Part shown: one piece after another, positions 1,741 to 31,661 of the stretch | Position numbering within the stretch: the stretch's first letter is position 1 | Layout: each line of letters starts with the position of its first letter | Sequence record: MT533174.1 | Strand: one strand, 5' to 3' | Source: Escherichia phage CJ20 | Length of the DNA stretch: 64,000 nucleotides | Position numbers and translations under genes: made by a program | The notes under the pieces: generated by a model | What the model saw: the letters and a program-made list of their open reading frames with translations, nothing else | The model's database searches: none | Told to the model about the DNA's origin: nothing

Positions 1741-4455
1741 ATGCAAGAATTTTATTTAACTATCGAACAAATCGGTGACAACCTGCTCGAACGATATATT
1801 GACAAGAATGGTCATGAACGTGTTCGTGAAATCCCTTATGCTCCATGCTTGTTTATGCACGCCCGAGAAGACCAGGCTGCAAAGTATACAGACATCTATA
1901 ATAAAGGTTGTGTGAAAAAAGAATTCGATTCCATGCGTGATGCATCCCAGTGGATGAAGCGAATGAATGACATGGGTCTCGAAGCTATGGGTATGGACGA
2001 CTTTAAACTCGCATACTTGTCCGACCGTTACCCACACGAAATCAAATATGATTCAAGTAAAATCCGTGTTGCTAACTTCGATATCGAGGTGACATCTCCC
2101 GATGGGTTCCCCGAACCGTCTGAAGCACGTCACCCTATTGATGCCCTGACGCACTATGATTCGGTAGACGATAAATTCTATGTCTTTGACCTTTTGGACT
2201 CACCATACGCCACTGTGGAGCAATGGTCTATTGATATTGCTGCTAAGCTGCAGGAAGATGGTGGTGATGAAGTCCCGGAAGAAATCCTGGAAAAAATTGT
2301 TTATATGGCTTTCGATTCAGAAGAAGAAATGCTCCAGCAGTATTTGGTATTCTGGAACGAGAAAACTCCGGTTATGTTAACTGGTTGGAACATCGAGAAG
2401 TTTGATATTCCATATATCTACAACCGCCTTAAAAATGTATTTGGTGAAGCTACAGCAAAACGTCTGAGCCCGCATCGTCGTACAAAAGTTAAGGTCATTA
2501 ACAACGGCTTTGGTGAAGAACAAGAAATCATTCAGATTCTGGGTATCTCTGTTCTGGATTATCTGGACCTGTATAAAAAGTTCAGCTTCACAAACCAACC
2601 GTCTTATTCGTTGGATTATGTTGCGGAATCTGAACTGGGTGTTGGTAAACTCCCGTATGATGGCCCAATTTCTAAACTGCGCGAATCAAATCACCAGCGG
2701 TATATTTCTTATAACATCATCGACGTTTATCGTGTTGTGCAGATTGACCGTAAGCGGCAGTTTATTAACCTGAGTCAGTCAATGGGTTATTATGCAAAAA
2801 TGCAGATTCAGTCTGTATTCAGCCCAATCAAAACTTGGGATGCGATTATCTTTAACAGCCTGAAGACTCAAAACAAAGTCATTCCGGAAACCAAATCGCA
2901 TGTTCGTCAATCGTTCCCTGGTGCATTTGTTAAGGAACCTATTCCGAACGCATACAAATATGTAATGAGCTGTGACTTAACATCTCTGTATCCGAGCATC
3001 ATCCGACAGATTAACATCAGTCCAGAAACGATTGCCGGTTCATTTGCTCCAGCCCAGATGTATGAATACATCGCAGGAACTGCTGACCGTCCATCTGATA
3101 CATTTAGTTGTGCTCCAAATGGTATGATGTATTTTAAAGATGTTGCGGGTATTATTCCGACAGAAGTCACCAAGGTGTTTAATCAGCGTAAAGAACACAA
3201 AGGCTATATGCTTGCGGCTCAACGTAATGGTGAACTGATTAAGGAAGCTCTGCGTAATCCAGGAACTGGTACAACCGAGCCTGAAGTTGATTATCGTCAT
3301 GACTTTGATGACAATATGAAAACAACCTTGCATGGTCTGAATCAAACAGTCCTAAATGGTATGTTGTACAAAGCGCAGATGGAAGAAGTTGCAGGCATGA
3401 CCGCGCAGATTAACCGTAAACTACTTATCAACAGTTGTTATGGTGCTCTGGGTAATATCTGGTTCCGTTACTTTGACCTGCGAAATGCAACCGCGATTAC
3501 ATCTTTCGGACAACTTGCATTGCAGTGGATTGAGCGTAAAGTTAACGAATACTTCGATAGTGTTTGCGGGACAAGCGGCGAAACTTATGTGTTCTATGGC
3601 GATACTGACTCCATTTATATCCAGTGCGATAACCTGATTAAAAAGGTTGGTGGCGAATCTAAATTCCGCGATACAAACCACCTGGTTGACTTCATGGACA
3701 AGTTCGCGAAAGACCGTCTGGAACCGGCAATCGATAAAGCTTTCCGTGAGCTGGCTGAATACATGAACAACAAACAGCACCTTATGTTTATGGACCGTGA
3801 GGCGATTGCATGTCCTCCACTGGGTTCTAAGGGTGTTGGTGGGTTCTGGACGGCGAAGAAGCGTTATGCGTTGAACGTGTACGATATGGAAGGTACACGA
3901 TATGCTGTTCCGAAACTGAAAATCATGGGTCTGGAAACTCAAAAGTCGAGTACTCCAAAGGCATGTCAGAAAGCTCTGAAAGAATGTATCCGCCGTATGC
4001 TGCAAGAAGGTGAAGAATCTCTGCAGACATACTTCAAGGAATTCAATAAGGAATTTAATGAGCTTAACTACATGACCATCGCAGGTGTATCATCGGTTAA
4101 CAACATCCAGAAATATAATGAAGGCGGTTTCCCTGGATTTAAGTGTCCGGCCCATATCAAAGGTGTGCTTGCATATATGCGTGCAACTAAAGGTCTGAAG
4201 ACTGTTCCGCAAATCATGGAAGGGGAAAAGGTGTATGTACTTCCTCTTAAAGTCGGCAACCCGTTTGGTGAAACCGTGATTGCATGGCCATCTGGGATTG
4301 AACTCCCGATTGAAATCCGTGACCAGGTTCTGCAGTGGATGGATTACAGTGCCTTGTTCCAGAAGACTTTTGTTAAGCCATTAACAGGTTTCTCTGAAGC
4401 TGCAAAGGTTGATTACGAAAAGAAAGCAACTCTTTTTGATATGTTTGACTTTTAA
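1741..4455 (+). CDS. 43: DNA polymerase gp43 (family B)
   Basis: 904 aa; exonuclease motif FDIEV, polymerase motifs SLYPSII, YGDTDS; end-to-end similarity to remembered T4/RB69 gp43. Confidence 0.97.
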   Translation: MQEFYLTIEQIGDNLLERYIDKNGHERVREIPYAPCLFMHAREDQAAKYTDIYNKGCVKKEFDSMRDASQWMKRMNDMGLEAMGMDDFKLAYLSDRYPHEIKYDSSKIRVANFDIEVTSPDGFPEPSEARHPIDALTHYDSVDDKFYVFDLLDSPYATVEQWSIDIAAKLQEDGGDEVPEEILEKIVYMAFDSEEEMLQQYLVFWNEKTPVMLTGWNIEKFDIPYIYNRLKNVFGEATAKRLSPHRRTKVKVINNGFGEEQEIIQILGISVLDYLDLYKKFSFTNQPSYSLDYVAESELGVGKLPYDGPISKLRESNHQRYISYNIIDVYRVVQIDRKRQFINLSQSMGYYAKMQIQSVFSPIKTWDAIIFNSLKTQNKVIPETKSHVRQSFPGAFVKEPIPNAYKYVMSCDLTSLYPSIIRQINISPETIAGSFAPAQMYEYIAGTADRPSDTFSCAPNGMMYFKDVAGIIPTEVTKVFNQRKEHKGYMLAAQRNGELIKEALRNPGTGTTEPEVDYRHDFDDNMKTTLHGLNQTVLNGMLYKAQMEEVAGMTAQINRKLLINSCYGALGNIWFRYFDLRNATAITSFGQLALQWIERKVNEYFDSVCGTSGETYVFYGDTDSIYIQCDNLIKKVGGESKFRDTNHLVDFMDKFAKDRLEPAIDKAFRELAEYMNNKQHLMFMDREAIACPPLGSKGVGGFWTAKKRYALNVYDMEGTRYAVPKLKIMGLETQKSSTPKACQKALKECIRRMLQEGEESLQTYFKEFNKEFNELNYMTIAGVSSVNNIQKYNEGGFPGFKCPAHIKGVLAYMRATKGLKTVPQIMEGEKVYVLPLKVGNPFGETVIAWPSGIELPIEIRDQVLQWMDYSALFQKTFVKPLTGFSEAAKVDYEKKATLFDMFDF

Positions 4456-6827: not shown

Positions 6828-7161
6828 TATCGATTTATCTGATTTAGATAATTTCGAGAAAGATGCGGAGGGAGCTAAGGCTCCTTCTGTACCTTACTAC
6901 GAAAAAAGTTTGGAGATTATCCGGCAATCCATGGGAACTGTACGGCAGGAAATTCTGTTATCACTTCCCGATGGGTCCAGTCACATTGTGTACGTAACCG
7001 GAATTAAAATTGAACCATCTGGAAAAGTTTCAGTTGATTTCGGCACCCCTTCTGAAGACCGCAAAGCGGAGCTTGCTGTGCATGTAGAAAAGTGTGTTAC
7101 AATGCAAATACAAGATGAAATTGATAAAATTAAAATGAAAAAGAGGTGGTGGAAGTGGTAG
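6817..7161 (+). CDS. 40: gp40-like protein (head vertex assembly factor in T4)
   Basis: 114 aa ORF between uvsX and gene 41, the gene 40 position in T4; assignment by synteny and size only. Confidence 0.55.
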   Translation: MMNDIDLSDLDNFEKDAEGAKAPSVPYYEKSLEIIRQSMGTVRQEILLSLPDGSSHIVYVTGIKIEPSGKVSVDFGTPSEDRKAELAVHVEKCVTMQIQDEIDKIKMKKRWWKW

Positions 7162-8585
7162 AAACTATTTTATCCCAGCTACTCTTTAACAAGGAATATT
7201 TTGTTAAAGTCTGGCCATATCTGAATAACACATATTTTGAAAAGGGTCCTGCAAAGACCCTTTTTAATACGATTAACGAACACGTAAAAGAATATCAAGC
7301 GGTACCAACTAAGACTGCACTTGATATCGCGCTCGACAGTTCTGACCTTTCTGAAGTCGAATATGAAGGCACAAAGAAACTCTTAGGAGTCCTGGCCGAT
7401 ACTCCAGAAGACCAGGAATGGTTGGTTAAAGAAACCGAGAAGTATGTACAGAAGTCTGCGATGTTCAATGCCACATCCAGGATTATCGAAATCCAGAGTA
7501 ATGCCGAACTTCCGAAAGATAAACGTGATAAACGAATCCCGGATATTGGTGCTATCCCTGACATCATGCGCGATGCATTGTCTATCTGTTTTGACTCTGC
7601 TCTGGGCCATGACTGGTTAAACGATTACGAGGCTCGATTCCAGACTTATCTGAACAAATCGAAGAAGGTTCCGTTCCGTATTAACATCCTGAATAAAATC
7701 ACGAAAGGTGGAGTTGAGTACGGTACAGAGAACGTTTTACTGGCCGGGACAAACGTCGGGAAATCCCTTGGACTTTGTTCGTTAGCGGCTGACTATCTTC
7801 AGACTGGTCATAACGTTCTTTATATAAGCATGGAAATGGCTGAAGAAGTATGTGCCAAACGTATTGATGCCAACTTGCTGGATGTGTCTCTGGATGATAT
7901 TGATGAAGGTCATGTGTCATGGGCGGAATATAAAGCTAAGATGGAAAAATGGCGTGCTTCCGGGACTCTTGGGACTCTGAAGATAAAACAATATCCAACT
8001 GGCGGTGCTCATGCAGATACCTTCCGCGCATTGCTGAATGAGTACAAGCTGAAGCAAGGGTTTGTGCCGGATGTGATTATTGTTGACTACCTGGCAATCT
8101 GTGCAAGCTCAAGACTGAAAACGTTTACCGAAAACAGTTACGGCCTGATTAAGATGGTTGCAGAAGAACTTCGTGGTCTGGCTGTTGAGAAAAATGTAGT
8201 CCTGTGGACTGCAGCGCAGACAACCAGGGGCGCGAACGTTGCAGCTGAGATTGATATGGCTGACATCGCAGAATCCTTTGGTATTGCTCACACGGCCGAC
8301 TTTATGTTGGGTGTTGTTGAGACCGAAGAATTCGCTCAAATGGGTCTACAGTTAATCAAACAGCTTAAGTCTCGTTATGGCGATAAGAACTACTATAATA
8401 AATTCAAGATGGGTGTTAAGAAAGGCAATCAGCGCTGGTACGAGGTTGATGATGATTCAGCTCCTAAACAAGGCCCTACGGTTAAAGAAGCCACCGGTGA
8501 GATGAATCGCCAGGCTGAAATGAATAGACAAACCAGGGTCAACAGGAGCGACCTGGACGACCTTGCTGCTCAAATGAAATTCTAA
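7146..8585 (+). CDS. 41: Replicative DnaB-like helicase gp41
   Basis: 479 aa; Walker A GTNVGKS; N-terminus aligns with T4 gp41; start codon ambiguous (GTG at 7146 or 7155). Confidence 0.95.
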   Translation: MVEVVETILSQLLFNKEYFVKVWPYLNNTYFEKGPAKTLFNTINEHVKEYQAVPTKTALDIALDSSDLSEVEYEGTKKLLGVLADTPEDQEWLVKETEKYVQKSAMFNATSRIIEIQSNAELPKDKRDKRIPDIGAIPDIMRDALSICFDSALGHDWLNDYEARFQTYLNKSKKVPFRINILNKITKGGVEYGTENVLLAGTNVGKSLGLCSLAADYLQTGHNVLYISMEMAEEVCAKRIDANLLDVSLDDIDEGHVSWAEYKAKMEKWRASGTLGTLKIKQYPTGGAHADTFRALLNEYKLKQGFVPDVIIVDYLAICASSRLKTFTENSYGLIKMVAEELRGLAVEKNVVLWTAAQTTRGANVAAEIDMADIAESFGIAHTADFMLGVVETEEFAQMGLQLIKQLKSRYGDKNYYNKFKMGVKKGNQRWYEVDDDSAPKQGPTVKEATGEMNRQAEMNRQTRVNRSDLDDLAAQMKF

Positions 8586-8603
8586 AGACCTTCGGGTCTT
8601 TTT
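8585..8603 (+). terminator. Rho-independent terminator (AAGACC-TTCG-GGTCTT + T run)
   Basis: Hairpin starts at gene 41 stop, followed by TTTT. Confidence 0.65.
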
Positions 8604-8612
8604 CATTTAGAG

Positions 8613-8642
8613 GTTTACATCACCATAAAAAGGGTGTACTAT
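8613..8642 (+). promoter_or_regulatory. Early sigma70-type promoter
   Basis: TTTACA 8614-8619, 17-bp spacer, TACTAT 8637-8642; followed by leader motif CCATCAACTACTGATGAGGA 8647-8666. Confidence 0.5.
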
Positions 8643-8673
8643 TATCCCATCAACTACTGATGAGGATAATAAA

Positions 8674-8922
8674 ATGTTATTAGTTAATGTGCATTACCAG
8701 TTCAAATCTGAAGAAGCTCTCCAAAAGTATGCTGATATTTGTGAGCATAATAAAAGAACAGCTGCCATTGTTGGTCTGAAGCCTTTTAAAATTTTGGATT
8801 GCTCCTTGAACAGAGCAAGGCGCTGGTGTAGTGTTGCCTGTCATGCTTCAGTTGAAGGGAATGATTATTTTTTCATTACTTTCAATGCACAAGATTTTCA
8901 TTTAATTAATGAATTAAAATAG
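8674..8922 (+). CDS. Hypothetical protein (82 aa)
   Basis: ATG 9 nt after GAGGA of leader motif; Cys-containing; no homology recognised. Confidence 0.45.
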   Translation: MLLVNVHYQFKSEEALQKYADICEHNKRTAAIVGLKPFKILDCSLNRARRWCSVACHASVEGNDYFFITFNAQDFHLINELK

Positions 8923-8923
8923 T

Positions 8924-8951
8924 GTACAAGCCCCTTGTCTTAGGACATAAT
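8924..8951 (+). promoter_or_regulatory. Early sigma70-type promoter
   Basis: TGTACA 8924-8929, 16-bp spacer, CATAAT 8946-8951, then leader motif TGATTCCATACTGAG. Confidence 0.5.
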
Positions 8952-9001
8952 GATTCCATACTGAGTTACACAATAAACCAACTGTTAAAAAGGAAAACCA
9001 T

Positions 9002-9304
9002 ATGTTTAATCAAACCGACATGAATCGTTACTATTTTGGACAATTCGCTCGCCGTGATGAAAACTGTGCTGCTCTTATCGCATCAGGCATTCAAACTGGT
9101 AAATTAATAAAGCTCAAAAGCGATGTTCAACCTTCATCTGTTCGCAGCTCTCTTCGTGAGTATCTGCTTGCAGGCGGTGAAGTGTACGTCATCGCCGAAC
9201 CTTTTGTTAACGTGTGCGATGATTACACAATTAGTGTGACTGTTATGCACCCAACTACTGGGAAAATTCGTTGTCTGACTATGCACAACTATGAGTTGGC
9301 ATAA
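9002..9304 (+). CDS. Hypothetical protein (100 aa)
   Basis: ORF with own promoter and terminator; no homology recognised. Confidence 0.45.
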   Translation: MFNQTDMNRYYFGQFARRDENCAALIASGIQTGKLIKLKSDVQPSSVRSSLREYLLAGGEVYVIAEPFVNVCDDYTISVTVMHPTTGKIRCLTMHNYELA

Positions 9305-9311
9305 GTGAACA

Positions 9312-9334
9312 AAGGGGCTTACAGCCCCTTTTTC
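9312..9334 (+). terminator. Rho-independent terminator (AAGGGGCT-TACA-AGCCCCTT + T run) overlapping next promoter -35
   Basis: Perfect 8-bp stem, TTTTT tail; CTTACA in the hairpin is 17 bp before TATAAT 9341-9346. Confidence 0.65.
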
Positions 9335-9346
9335 TTATGTTATAAT
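9318..9346 (+). promoter_or_regulatory. Early sigma70-type promoter embedded in terminator hairpin
   Basis: CTTACA 9318-9323, 17-bp spacer, TATAAT 9341-9346, leader CCTATCAACTACTGGAG. Confidence 0.45.
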
Positions 9347-9372
9347 GACCCTATCAACTACTGGAGAATAAA

Positions 9373-9690
9373 ATGAAAACCATTGATTGCAAGGCAGAAT
9401 ACAAAGTTTATTATCATGGGTCAAGCTCTAATGCTGGAATCCAAAATATGCTTTGTCCTCCTGATGCAACTGGTGTTCTGTCAGAAGTTGGGCGTAAGAA
9501 AAATTTAGGGCGTGTGTTTTTTACTGAAGATATTGGTTTGGCGCGTATCTATGCAGGAAGAGCAGCTCGCTCATATGGAGGAGAACCCCGTCTTTATCGT
9601 GTGATTGCACCTGTTGACGTGGTTTGTTTAAATGATACTAAAGGCGCAACAGTTTATCACGCTGCCTGGGCGTTTTGTGAGGAAATCTAA
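9373..9690 (+). CDS. Hypothetical protein (105 aa) with ADP-ribosyltransferase-like motifs (YHGS and FTEDxGxAR)
   Basis: Motif FFTEDIGLARIYA mirrors SFTEDYGIARDFA of the ModA/ModB-type protein at 15854; ends at TAA directly followed in frame by next ATG. Confidence 0.5.
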   Translation: MKTIDCKAEYKVYYHGSSSNAGIQNMLCPPDATGVLSEVGRKKNLGRVFFTEDIGLARIYAGRAARSYGGEPRLYRVIAPVDVVCLNDTKGATVYHAAWAFCEEI

Positions 9691-9894
9691 ATGTATAAAT
9701 TAGAGAACGTAGTGTTTATTGGTTGGTTTGAAAATGGCAATATGTTTACCAAAGAAACTGCGCTGGATGTCAGTGACAAAAATATGATTGAATGGGTTAC
9801 AGTGCAGTATGCAGAAGTGAATAATGCGCTGGTTAAAGCCTTTGTTAATGATAATAAAGTTTTTGAATATGATTATCGTTCTAACGAAAAATAA
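9691..9894 (+). CDS. Hypothetical protein (67 aa); same frame as 9373-9690 across a single TAA
   Basis: ATG immediately after TAA 9688-9690; position and size compatible with a T4 61.4/dmd-type small gene, not verified. Confidence 0.45.
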   Translation: MYKLENVVFIGWFENGNMFTKETALDVSDKNMIEWVTVQYAEVNNALVKAFVNDNKVFEYDYRSNEK

Positions 9895-9896
9895 CA

Positions 9897-9928
9897 GTTT
9901 ACATCAAAGGGATAATGCTGTATATTAT
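9897..9928 (+). promoter_or_regulatory. Early sigma70-type promoter
   Basis: GTTTAC 9897-9902, TATATTAT 9921-9928, leader CCTATCAACTACTGAGGAG. Confidence 0.5.
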
Positions 9929-9954
9929 CCCTATCAACTACTGAGGAGATTGAA

Positions 9955-10248
9955 ATGAAAAAGTTATTAATCGCAGCAATTCTTACCGTAGCATCATGTG
10001 GTACAGCTCCAGTTACTGCTGGACTTGATAAAGACCTTTGTGAGTGGTCTATGACCGCCGACCAGACTGATGTTGAACATCAGATTTATGCTGATATCAT
10101 GAACATTACTAAACGTGACCGTCCAGATATGGTTAAAGAAGTATCTGACCAACTGGCTTCTGGTGACGTTATGCAGTATAACTATGTTCTGTATTGCGAT
10201 GCTTCATTTGACAACAGCAAGATTGTTCAATGGGTTACAGGTGAATAA
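9955..10248 (+). CDS. sp: Spackle-like periplasmic protein (signal peptide)
   Basis: 97 aa, same length as T4 Sp; N-terminal signal peptide; motif DKDLCEWSMTADQT recalled from T4 Sp; located between genes 41 and 61 as in T4. Confidence 0.55.
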   Translation: MKKLLIAAILTVASCGTAPVTAGLDKDLCEWSMTADQTDVEHQIYADIMNITKRDRPDMVKEVSDQLASGDVMQYNYVLYCDASFDNSKIVQWVTGE

Positions 10249-10249
10249 A

Positions 10250-10687
10250 ATGATTAACAGAACTTTAGTTATCAAAAAACTTCGTTGTAAAAATCAAAAT
10301 GCACAAGCATACAGGATGTTTTGGAGCGACGAAATTCAATACCTGGGTTATTTTCTTGTTGATAGTGATAATAGAATTACGTTTGCTCATAAACTTCTTA
10401 ACAAAGAATTAAACCATTGGCAAGAACTTATTGCGGTCAAGTCTAAATTATTTTCGCGCAATACAATGCACCAATTGGTTTATTTTTTCGCTGACGGTAT
10501 TCCCGACAAGGTTGAGTTTGACGGGTTTGAATTTAAAGACATCAACCCTGATAATGAATTGAATGACAGTATTGTTAATATGGGTATCCCTGACAAGTAC
10601 ATTAAAAACAGTCTTTTGAAACTTCTGGAAAATCCTGTTTATTCAGTTGACGACCAGATTTTTAATGCTTTCATGAAGCGAGATTAA
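10250..10687 (+). CDS. Hypothetical protein (145 aa) ending DDQIFNAFMKRD
   Basis: ATG 10250 after sp stop; 3' end is one copy of a 35-bp direct repeat. Confidence 0.45.
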   Translation: MINRTLVIKKLRCKNQNAQAYRMFWSDEIQYLGYFLVDSDNRITFAHKLLNKELNHWQELIAVKSKLFSRNTMHQLVYFFADGIPDKVEFDGFEFKDINPDNELNDSIVNMGIPDKYIKNSLLKLLENPVYSVDDQIFNAFMKRD

Positions 10688-10688
10688 T

Positions 10689-11045
10689 ATGAGTTATTAT
10701 AATTTTCTGAATTTTGAACTGGCGAGCAATAATGATGGTAATGCTCATTATGAATTTCGTGAGCCTCGGTTTAATCAGGCGATTGGTTATATTATCGTTA
10801 AAGATAATGTTATTATAAAGGCTCGCTCATTTATGGTAATGAGTGGACCTTATGAAGATACTCGTGGCTATCCATTTGATAAAAAGAATGTACGCGATTG
10901 TGCGGCATGGATAACCGGAAACCCTGAAATTGGGGTCATGATATCTACTGAAGCGAATGACATTCTGGAAGGGGTCGTCAAAGCTCAAGAACCGCCTACT
11001 GATATTGATGACCAGATTTTTAATGCCTTCATGAAGCGAGGTTGA
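10689..11045 (+). CDS. Hypothetical protein (118 aa) ending DDQIFNAFMKRG
   Basis: ORF exactly bracketed by direct repeats 10648-10682 and 11006-11040. Confidence 0.5.
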   Translation: MSYYNFLNFELASNNDGNAHYEFREPRFNQAIGYIIVKDNVIIKARSFMVMSGPYEDTRGYPFDKKNVRDCAAWITGNPEIGVMISTEANDILEGVVKAQEPPTDIDDQIFNAFMKRG

Positions 11046-15853: not shown

Positions 15854-16414
15854 ATGAACATCATCAAATCTGATACCGAACCCAACCAGTTAAAATTTAG
15901 TGAAATGGAGATAGCTTCATTATTTGAATGCCGCACATCAAAGGTTGATAAGGCATTGCATTCAAACGTTAACTCAATCATCAAGTCAAGGTTATCTGTG
16001 CCTGATACAGTCTTGTATCGTGGGATTACCCAGCAAGAGATTGATTTGTTAGATGAAGCAAAAGAATCAATGCAACCTTTTGAATTTGGAAGGATAACCT
16101 CCTTTACAGAAGACTATGGTATTGCCAGGGATTTTGCCGCAATGGAATATGTGTCAAGGACTATCATCAGATTGAATCATACAAAAGCTTTTTGTTACCA
16201 TGATGCGATGCGCAAAATCGCGCTTGACGTTCCACTGGAATTCTTCAATACAGCTTCTGGTTCCGAACAGGCAGCAACGTTAAGACGTGAAGAATACATG
16301 GACATGATTGATTCTGAGCTTGAATGGTTTGTTCCAGTTGACCAGAAATTCGTGATAGTTGATGCTGGATTTGTTGGTGATTATTATGTTCTTGACTGTG
16401 TACAAGCACAATAA
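15854..16414 (+). CDS. ADP-ribosyltransferase, ModA/ModB family
   Basis: 186 aa; R-S-E type motifs LYRGIT, ITSFTED, ELEWFVPVD; first of a tandem pair; ModA versus ModB orthology not resolved. Confidence 0.7.
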   Translation: MNIIKSDTEPNQLKFSEMEIASLFECRTSKVDKALHSNVNSIIKSRLSVPDTVLYRGITQQEIDLLDEAKESMQPFEFGRITSFTEDYGIARDFAAMEYVSRTIIRLNHTKAFCYHDAMRKIALDVPLEFFNTASGSEQAATLRREEYMDMIDSELEWFVPVDQKFVIVDAGFVGDYYVLDCVQAQ

Positions 16415-16427
16415 GACATGTTAAGAT
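16399..16427 (+). promoter_or_regulatory. Early sigma70-type promoter
   Basis: TGTACA 16399-16404, 17-bp spacer, TAAGAT 16422-16427; followed by leader CCTATCAACTACTGATGAGGA 16431-16451. Confidence 0.45.
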
Positions 16428-16458
16428 GTTCCTATCAACTACTGATGAGGATAATAAA

Positions 16459-17073
16459 ATGCTGTACGCAAGTCACCAATTAGCAGAGTACATCAATGCA
16501 GTTAAATGTGAATATTTTCGTGAAAATACCCAGATTGAAATTGATGAAATTTACTCTGAGTTGGAACAGAGTACACTCTGGCAGTGTATGGAAAATAAGC
16601 CAGACACTATCCAGGAAACTTTGAACAAAATTATTCGTAAGAATTTGACTTCTGCTGTGCCTGGTAAGTTATATCGCGGGATTTCTAAGAAAACTTTGGC
16701 ATATCTTGAAACCGTAGGATGTGTTGGTGCTACGATTGAGTTTGACCGTGTAATGAGTTTCTCCAAAGATTTCAAAGTCGCACGTAACTTTGCTTCCTTT
16801 AGCTTCTATGGAACCAAAAATATTTTCTGTATTAATGATGCACCATTCGCATTTGATTATCAGGAAGCGATTTTTAAAATGATTTGTGCGGCACCTCCTG
16901 AAGAGTTCAATGGACTATATCCTGAAATAACTCGTTCTTCAAACTTGCAATTAGTAAATGATGAAGATGAGATGATGTTCCCTGCGGGAACTACGCTACG
17001 CGTGGACTCTATTGAGAGCATTTATAGATGGGAAGACTATAAATTATGGAATCTTTCCGTTCTTTCTTACTGA
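16459..17073 (+). CDS. ADP-ribosyltransferase, ModA/ModB family (second tandem copy)
   Basis: 204 aa; LYRGIS, MSFSKD, DEDEMMFPAG motifs; ATG 16459 with SD GAGGA. Confidence 0.7.
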   Translation: MLYASHQLAEYINAVKCEYFRENTQIEIDEIYSELEQSTLWQCMENKPDTIQETLNKIIRKNLTSAVPGKLYRGISKKTLAYLETVGCVGATIEFDRVMSFSKDFKVARNFASFSFYGTKNIFCINDAPFAFDYQEAIFKMICAAPPEEFNGLYPEITRSSNLQLVNDEDEMMFPAGTTLRVDSIESIYRWEDYKLWNLSVLSY

Positions 17074-31635: not shown

Positions 31636-31661
31636 GAACCTATCAACTACTGGAGATGATT

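Follow-up and report, generated by a model that had tools for sequence, protein, structure and literature searches.

What is encoded at positions 9373 to 9894 of a 64,000-nucleotide stretch of Escherichia phage CJ20 DNA (MT533174.1; the window in the following), where two open reading frames (ORFs) of the plus strand abut in the same frame? The 64-kb window is T4-like phage DNA of the Gaprivervirus SP18/VR20 type. The first ORF (9373-9690, 105 aa) carries Y13-Y14-H15-G16-S17-S18-S19 and, from F49 and thus 34 residues past H15, FFTEDIGLARIYA. Its stop codon TAA (9688-9690) directly abuts the in-frame ATG 9691 of a 67-aa ORF (9691-9894) that holds the motif IEWVTV. A sequence-only reading had recognized these elements, all of which are indeed present, and had taken them for a possible ADP-ribosyltransferase (ART) gene that is split, pseudogenised or read through. 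We are close to certain that ORF 9373-9690 is an independent gene for an ART-fold protein, termed mini-ART here; there is no broken gene at 9373-9894, and the suspected fusion partner is dmd. That this intact, autonomous early gene encodes a minimal Arr-like ART, which would bind NAD+ and transfer ADP-ribose early in infection, is a reading to which we give a little more than even confidence.

An AlphaFold2 model of the 105-aa protein, built from 35 homologues (mean predicted local distance difference test score, pLDDT, 85; predicted template modelling score, pTM, 0.76), returned an ART fold for ORF 9373-9690 on its own. Strands and helices follow the order of the ART core, and the split β-sheet core of strand 1, loop, strand 2, helix and strands 3 to 6 is present. 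Foldseek ranked Arr at the top for this model (probability 0.98), ahead of Tpt1/KptA, RES toxins, ParT and PARPs. Among PDB sequences neither the 105-aa protein alone nor the profile of its close homologues had a match, and a profile of 51 stand-alone family members matched only Arr-ms (E = 0.002) and Arr-2 (E = 0.009). This 51-member profile was aligned with Arr-2 by hhalign over 75 columns (94.9% probability, E = 4.8e-8), and the Pfam family Arr-ms (PF12120) was matched by 18 of the 51 stand-alone members (E up to 0.01) as well as by many relatives that are fused to other domains. Most matches of the fused relatives are above the gathering cut-off of 25 bits, but they cover only positions 1-67 of the 99 profile positions. 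Model and profiles together identify mini-ART as a predicted ART-fold protein of the His-type branch, with the rifampin ADP-ribosyltransferase Arr (PF12120) as its closest characterised relative. As the window holds two tandem Mod-like genes of the R-S-E type besides, mini-ART is the third of its ART-fold genes, and the proposal of a third ART-like gene of His type and not of Arg type is borne out by the model, the Foldseek ranking and the profile link to Arr.

Like Arr (PDB 2HW2, 9IAF, 9IBA), mini-ART has an HG[ST] motif, an E-x-G-R loop between strands 1 and 2, a strand-2 aromatic residue that is followed by [ST], the following helix and a GG-x-P...V-x-P strand. In the profile alignment H15 corresponds to H19 of Arr, F49 to Y49, and E38-x-G-R41 to the EAGR in the flexible strand1-strand2 loop, which in Arr forms the NAD+ site (PMC6092378). 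The activity of Arr needs His19, Tyr49 and Asp84, the last of which lies within a 100%-conserved DPN[VL] motif (PMC6092378, PMC13246000). Only the His of this essential triad is kept in mini-ART. The essential Tyr49 is replaced by Phe in 98% of the mini-ART family, and Asp84/DPN[VL] has no conserved counterpart, the hhalign alignment stopping at Arr-2 residue 89, just before DDPN. Arr is also larger (about 140-150 aa versus 105 aa), and its C-terminal region with the rifamycin-binding cleft is missing from mini-ART, which ends at residue 105, whereas Arr-2 runs about 55 residues further; related domains end at the same point as mini-ART, likewise without this region. Since the family has Phe for Tyr49, no Asp84/DPN and no drug-binding tail, we see in it a sister family of Arr rather than a transferase for rifampin, and rifampin was rejected as an unlikely substrate because motif and tail are absent. 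Identical genes of GenBank phages are filed as "hypothetical protein", and a few homologues are labelled "(rifampin) ADP-ribosyl transferase".

The gene for this protein is intact. Its product matches PHROG 2110 end to end (residues 1-105 of 105, E = 1e-58), and a search of 5.8 billion proteins found 121 homologues. The 120 listed ones are 80-139 aa long, typically 96-112 aa with peaks at 96-97 and 105-106 aa, and none of these close homologues is a fusion of ART and Dmd, which would have about 172 aa. A tblastn search found the mini-ART gene in 609 phage records, mostly with 60-100% identity, the carriers being phages of Escherichia, Klebsiella, Acinetobacter, Aeromonas, Enterobacter, Vibrio and others. 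In the 66 loci examined (60 IMG/VR contigs, 5 GenBank phages and the window) the stop codon is at the same place, and the median pairwise ratio of nonsynonymous to synonymous substitution rates (dN/dS) is about 0.12. Given the full-length match to PHROG 2110, the homologue lengths, the common stop position and the dN/dS of 0.12, the gene is neither pseudogenised nor split; it is complete, has no fusion to dmd and evolves under purifying selection. The family is essentially restricted to phages: when 185,579 genomes were scanned with a narrow pattern, 4 loci came up, and the one inspected was a phage-sized contig.

A mini-ART copy of the Klebsiella/Enterobacter-phage type was seen at 3965-4282 of NZ_JBHSCL010000010.1, a sequence of 178,077 bp, and thus of T4-like genome size, from a "Flagellimonas marina" assembly. 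The neighbourhood of this copy is similar to that in Klebsiella phage Matisse, and the sequence is probably a phage genome, or a contamination, that is filed under a marine Flavobacterium.

With 105 aa, the ORF had been judged too short for a catalytic domain, a view that its diverged relatives contradict. When 1.84 billion cluster representatives were searched exhaustively with a profile, 243 proteins matched at E up to 0.001. The full domain is present in 99 of these, and in 58 of the 99 it ends at most 6 residues from the C-terminus of the protein; the unit of about 95 residues is a whole, self-contained domain. Half of the set (50/99) are proteins of at least 200 aa, of which 23 carry the domain at the C-terminus, 22 internally and 5 at the N-terminus. 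Its partner domains are ART-PolyVal, LPD23, ddrB-ParB, NUDIX, 2H/Acb1-like phosphoesterase and the lambda-type portal, and further minor tail protein, CHAP, GNAT, Toprim and DUF7178. Two long phage proteins, P0150 (1955 aa) and P0199 (1981 aa), have the Arr-like module followed by a NUDIX domain, and in the phage protein P0153 (954 aa) a lambda-type portal domain and the Arr-like module are followed by a 2H/Acb1-like phosphoesterase. NUDIX and 2H phosphoesterase domains process ADP-ribose or cyclic-phosphate products, and such partners may give a hint at the chemistry of the Arr-like module. Such partners make up the repertoire of phage effectors of the polyvalent or virion-delivered type (PMC5512222), for which action at an early stage of infection is predicted (PMC5512222, PMC9503650).

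Which residues the domain conserves was evaluated in 100 sequences, namely the window protein and 99 cluster representatives at 50% identity or less. H15, G16 and Y60 are conserved to 100%, as is [ST] at position 17, and F49 is conserved to 98%, with Tyr in the other 2%. E38 (98%), R41 (97%), T51 (97%), A57 (99%), G69 (98%) and both G70 and G91 (95%) follow. Across these sequences the H-type motif is far beyond chance, and two hallmarks by which ART superfamily membership was judged, a strand-1 His with G-[ST] and a strand-2 aromatic residue (F49) with an aromatic residue in the helix (Y60), are found in mini-ART. Judged from these positions, mini-ART has kept H15-G16-S17 of the predicted NAD+ site, F49 and Y60 as its pair of aromatic residues, and an E38-x-G-R41 loop like that of Arr. 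The corresponding codons lie on the plus strand at 9415-9417 (H15), 9484-9486 (E38), 9493-9495 (R41), 9517-9519 (F49) and 9550-9552 (Y60).

From these elements a mechanism can be proposed. The mini-ART gene would be transcribed from its own early-type promoter, bicistronically with dmd, and NAD+ would be bound by H15-G16-S17 at the end of strand 1. By analogy to related enzymes F49 and Y60 would stack the nicotinamide, and E38-x-G-R41-K-K-N, a flexible and invariant loop, would close over the dinucleotide. Early in infection, ADP-ribose might then be moved to a host or defence-related target, so that mini-ART would be a small host-takeover or counter-defence effector, like the small phage ART AcrIF11 or Alt/Mod of T4.

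Several observations weigh against this proposal. The 105-aa window protein alone has no match in Pfam (E up to 1) or NCBIfam, and a literature search found no experimental study of the mini-ART family, only a computational mention from 2022 and the biochemistry of Arr. Promoters and terminators were called from consensus matches only. Confidence in the AlphaFold2 model is lowest at the best-conserved loop (residues 37-40), which would fit an ordering of this loop on ligand binding. In the 100 sequences, no acidic residue or Gln is conserved after strand 3 or at the position of Arr Asp84. E84 is conserved to 54% in the wide family, yet it is Val in the window protein; E103 is not conserved, N87 and D88 reach 60% and 26%, and the invariant E38 is placed in the strand1-strand2 loop and not at the canonical catalytic position. 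As a conserved equivalent of Asp84 is missing and Tyr49 of Arr has become Phe, mini-ART need not be catalytically competent. A pure ligand-binding role would, from the conservation pattern, fit mini-ART equally well, and we consider it about an even question, with a slight lean to the positive side, whether the protein is catalytically active.

The alternative that survives best is a non-catalytic ART-fold binder, in which the NAD+/ADP-ribose pocket was kept and the transferase chemistry lost, and which would act stoichiometrically. Such a protein could act as a sponge for an immune signal derived from NAD, could buffer NAD+ or ADP-ribose, or could, as a decoy or inhibitor, occupy a defence protein of the host that depends on NAD. 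The lack of a conserved acid at the usual third position of the catalytic site and the exchange of the Tyr49 that is essential in Arr (PMC6092378, PMC13246000) agree with this idea, as do the core of about 95 aa without a substrate-binding extension like the C-terminal region of Arr or the N-terminal lobe of KptA, and the place of an early gene among known counter-defence genes (dmd). However, H-G-[ST], the aromatic pair and E38/R41 are typical of catalysis-competent His-type ARTs and are invariant over the 99 representatives. Moreover, the NUDIX and 2H neighbours in polyvalent proteins make more sense if the module produces ADP-ribose products, and ARTs of the KptA type work without a catalytic Glu. 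We regard a binder, with any of the roles named, as possible but rather unlikely, and prefer to see mini-ART as a transferase.

For a transferase of this kind, KptA/Tpt1 offers a comparison. The C-terminal ART lobe of KptA, which likewise has no catalytic Glu, shows YHGT, then h-h-[ST]-x-D-x-x-x-A and then G-x-P-V in the same register as mini-ART, and the phage-domain relatives that are fused to NUDIX and 2H phosphoesterase, as processors of KptA-type products, provide a further link. On the other hand, the N-terminal winged-helix RNA lobe and the Arg-His-Arg-Arg tetrad of KptA are absent from mini-ART, the second His of the KptA H-H-h signature is Phe, and the hhalign alignment with E. coli KptA was marginal (5% probability, E = 0.008; KptA residues 94-155 only). 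Since the family has no conserved acid where the third catalytic residue would canonically be, an unusual acceptor or chemistry is possible; by analogy, the acceptor might be a phosphate or hydroxyl as in KptA and Arr, or catalysis might be helped by E38. The idea can be extended to PHROG-2110 as a widespread phage enzyme class, namely a "core-only" Arr/KptA-like ART of about 95 residues with the E38-x-G-R41-K-K-N loop. Without the canonical catalytic acid, it might rely on this invariant loop to ADP-ribosylate an unconventional acceptor, such as a phosphate or hydroxyl group that belongs to an RNA or DNA end or to a small-molecule immune signal, and would serve as a new activity of early counter-defence both in T4-like phages and in injected polyvalent proteins, maybe together with Dmd against RNase-type defences in the Escherichia clade. 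We consider this extension speculative and unlikely to hold in its entirety.

The two Mod-like ART genes of the window lie in tandem on the plus strand at 15854-16414 and 16426-17073 and have the pattern YRGI[TS]...SF[TS][EK]D...ARxFA. The first matches phrog_832 (E = 4e-28), and the pair are presumably homologues of ModA and ModB. YRGIT and SFTEDYGIARDFA are both there in ORF 15854-16414; the sequence-only reading had likened the second motif of mini-ART to the latter, with a similar spacing after YRGIT. The likeness is real but weak: pairwise BLASTP aligned 60 columns, gaps included, with E = 0.001, a match that FTED.G.AR carries, and the two proteins share the strand-2/helix element FTED.G.AR..A, whereas YHGS and YRGIT are not aligned. 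ModA, ModB and Alt of T4 modify host proteins. These R-S-E enzymes belong to the ART superfamily like mini-ART and are encoded by early phage genes, as mini-ART would be by inference. In contrast to the His-type mini-ART of PHROG 2110, the Mod/Alt type has the Arg signature YRGI[TS], about twice the size and PHROG 832; mini-ART has His for this Arg and no E-x-E strand. With the phage anti-CRISPR ART AcrIF11 (PDB 6KYF), mini-ART has no detectable sequence relationship, and the window gives no sign of CRISPR or another specific target for mini-ART.

The expression signals around the gene point to an early unit. A G+C-rich, terminator-like stem-loop with T-run lies on the plus strand at 9311-9331 (9 pairs, 5 of them G-C, a loop of 3, then TTCTTATG). 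It would close the unit of the upstream 100-aa ORF and overlaps the -35 element of the next promoter-like site, which is of sigma-70/T4-early type (9318-9346, plus strand; CTTACA, 17-nt spacer, TATAAT, extended TG, 10 of 12 matches) and has the best score within 8500-10400. A conserved cassette of leader and ribosome-binding site, CCCTATCAACTACTGGAGAA, follows at 9349-9368 on the same strand, with GGAG at 9363-9366, 6 nt before the ATG. Five copies of this leader cassette were found on the plus strand, with 0 expected: at 8645-8664 before the goF-like gene, at 9349-9368 before the mini-ART gene, at 9929-9948 before sp, at 16430-16449 before the second Mod-like gene, and a fifth at 31638-31657. 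The recurring unit consists of (G)TTTACA, a 17-nt spacer, TATAAT and CCCTATCAACTACTGRGGAG, with the ATG about 6 nt on, and each copy would stand at the head of its own small early transcription unit, which fits a shuffling of accessory genes as modules. The next early-promoter-like site (9898-9926, plus strand; TTTACA, 17-nt spacer, TATATT) would open the sp unit and bound that of mini-ART and dmd, and the consensus scan found no promoter-like or terminator-like element between these two genes. With promoter-like site and leader upstream, none between and the next site at 9898, mini-ART and dmd would form one early bicistronic cassette that is transcribed from its own early-type promoter.

The second ORF of this cassette is dmd. 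Its product was matched by Pfam PF17587 with 74.1 bits (cut-off 27, E = 1e-20) and by phrog_2102 (E = 1.2e-33), and aligned with the solved Dmd 5I8J over residues 1-63 (E = 1.4e-22) and with the T4 antitoxin Dmd in 5HY3_B (E = 5.6e-17). IEWVTV, which had been compared with ELEWFVPV in the catalytic-Glu region of the Mod-like protein, is in fact a conserved Dmd motif and no catalytic-Glu strand of an ART, as it is aligned with IEWVTVQ of 5I8J. A Shine-Dalgarno sequence GAGGAA can be read on the plus strand at 9679-9684, inside the 3' end of the mini-ART gene and 6 nt before ATG 9691. ORF 9691-9894 is hence dmd, a separate gene that probably follows mini-ART as second cistron in one early unit. 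At two loci, a second, longer ORF directly follows dmd (L006 3532-3873, VR20-like; L026 3492-3824, VR25-like) and is matched by the Dmd hidden Markov model (HMM) with E values of 1.8e-14 and 1.1e-7, so that these relatives may carry a tandem Dmd-like paralogue which the window lacks.

Dmd is the discriminator of mRNA degradation and acts as an antitoxin against host RnlA/LsoA, and the arrangement raises the possibility of a type II toxin-antitoxin pair, with the ART as toxin and the downstream Dmd as its dedicated antitoxin. A "novel type-II T-A system" was derived from gene neighbourhoods by Iyer, Burroughs, Anantharaman and Aravind in 2022 (PMC9503650, section 3.7.1), comprising a predicted ART of the "p0068" family (H-Y-[EDQ] clade) and a Dmd antitoxin in phages of Escherichia, Shigella and Salmonella, and the "p0068-like" family is among the most frequent viral ART families (PMC9503650). 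The description fits the present locus, where the ART is immediately upstream of Dmd, as compared by verbal description. Besides this published prediction, the bicistronic order with its TAA-ATG junction and without a promoter or terminator between the genes would agree with such a pair, and so would the adjacency that is kept in 13 loci of an Escherichia/Shigella clade. The survey of the 66 neighbourhoods with an iterated Dmd HMM nevertheless gives no support to the toxin-antitoxin reading of Iyer et al. Dmd is found within 3 kb of mini-ART in these 13 loci only, in each case as the next ORF downstream, and they all fall into the Escherichia/Shigella clade with at least 79% identity to the window mini-ART. 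The ORFs immediately downstream belong to at least 24 unrelated families, 10 of the 66 loci have no co-directional ORF within 200 nt, and even the most frequent neighbour family is present in at most 20 of the 66 loci, so that a conserved partner gene was not found. PHROG scans of the mini-ART neighbours in Aeromonas phage 65, Acinetobacter phage Konradin, Klebsiella phage Matisse and Vibrio phage 501E54-1 found no Dmd either.

The conserved co-occurrence that a type II pair would need is thus not seen, which argues against an obligate ART-Dmd toxin-antitoxin pair, and a functional link that is specific to the one clade would be compatible with the survey. Dmd also has another well-established target in RnlA/LsoA (PDB 5HY3 complex), and in T4, dmd presumably follows directly after gene 41, without a mini-ART gene between. 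We think that a toxin-antitoxin pair is very unlikely. With co-occurrence in 13 of 66 loci and varied downstream families, the mini-ART gene is autonomous and Dmd a clade-specific, unrelated neighbour, with which it would share a transcription unit in one clade only. As for a split, pseudogenised or read-through ART gene with the 67-aa ORF as its C-terminal catalytic part, only the in-frame TAA-ATG junction and the superficial likeness of IEWVTV to ELEWFVPV speak for it, and it was rejected as virtually impossible, because Dmd accounts for the entire second ORF, which has its own Shine-Dalgarno sequence, no fused homologue exists among the 120 clusters (maximum 139 aa), the ART domain ends at this point in 58 of the 99 diverged relatives and dN/dS is 0.12. 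Comparison with relatives gave the very outcome that the sequence-only reading had declared in advance as refuting it, namely a Dmd homologue as second ORF and two genes that are separate and independently conserved.

To our knowledge, the classical model of ADP-ribosylation in T4-like phages builds on studies of the Arg-type enzymes Alt, ModA and ModB only. Many T4-like phages, as the 609 GenBank phage records indicate, also carry a highly conserved His-type mini-ART, which lies beside counter-defence genes and whose module is reused in injected polyvalent proteins. Its substrate, once known, would add a new reaction of host takeover or anti-defence. Already known are the ART nature and the Dmd adjacency as computational predictions (Iyer et al. 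2022); the family is catalogued but experimentally unstudied.

The region 8600-10300 shares 97.6-99.4% identity with Escherichia phages P479 and vB_EcoM_RZ and Shigella phage SP18 (Straboviridae, Tevenvirinae, Gaprivervirus). All genes of the locus are on the plus strand. The gene 41 helicase (7146-8585), assigned by Pfam and PHROG scans and phage comparison, is followed by a goF-like ORF (8674-8922; phrog_2980, E = 4e-20) and by the 100-aa ORF (9002-9304; phrog_17014), to which no function was assigned. Then come the mini-ART gene (9373-9690), dmd (9691-9894) and, according to Pfam and PHROG scans, spackle (sp, 9955-10248). The goF-like ORF and the 100-aa ORF, which lie between gene 41 and mini-ART, each have their own promoter-like site upstream, and the stretch from gene 41 to dmd would be an insertion-rich spot if the T4 order that we assume, with dmd next to gene 41, holds. 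Further downstream on the plus strand, the adjacent ORFs 10115-10687 (190 aa) and 10689-11045 (118 aa) occupy the position of the T4 accessory genes 61.1-61.2. Their sequences are otherwise different, yet both end in a common C-terminal tail, DDQIFNAFMKR[DG], which could be a shared interaction motif or a footprint of recombination.

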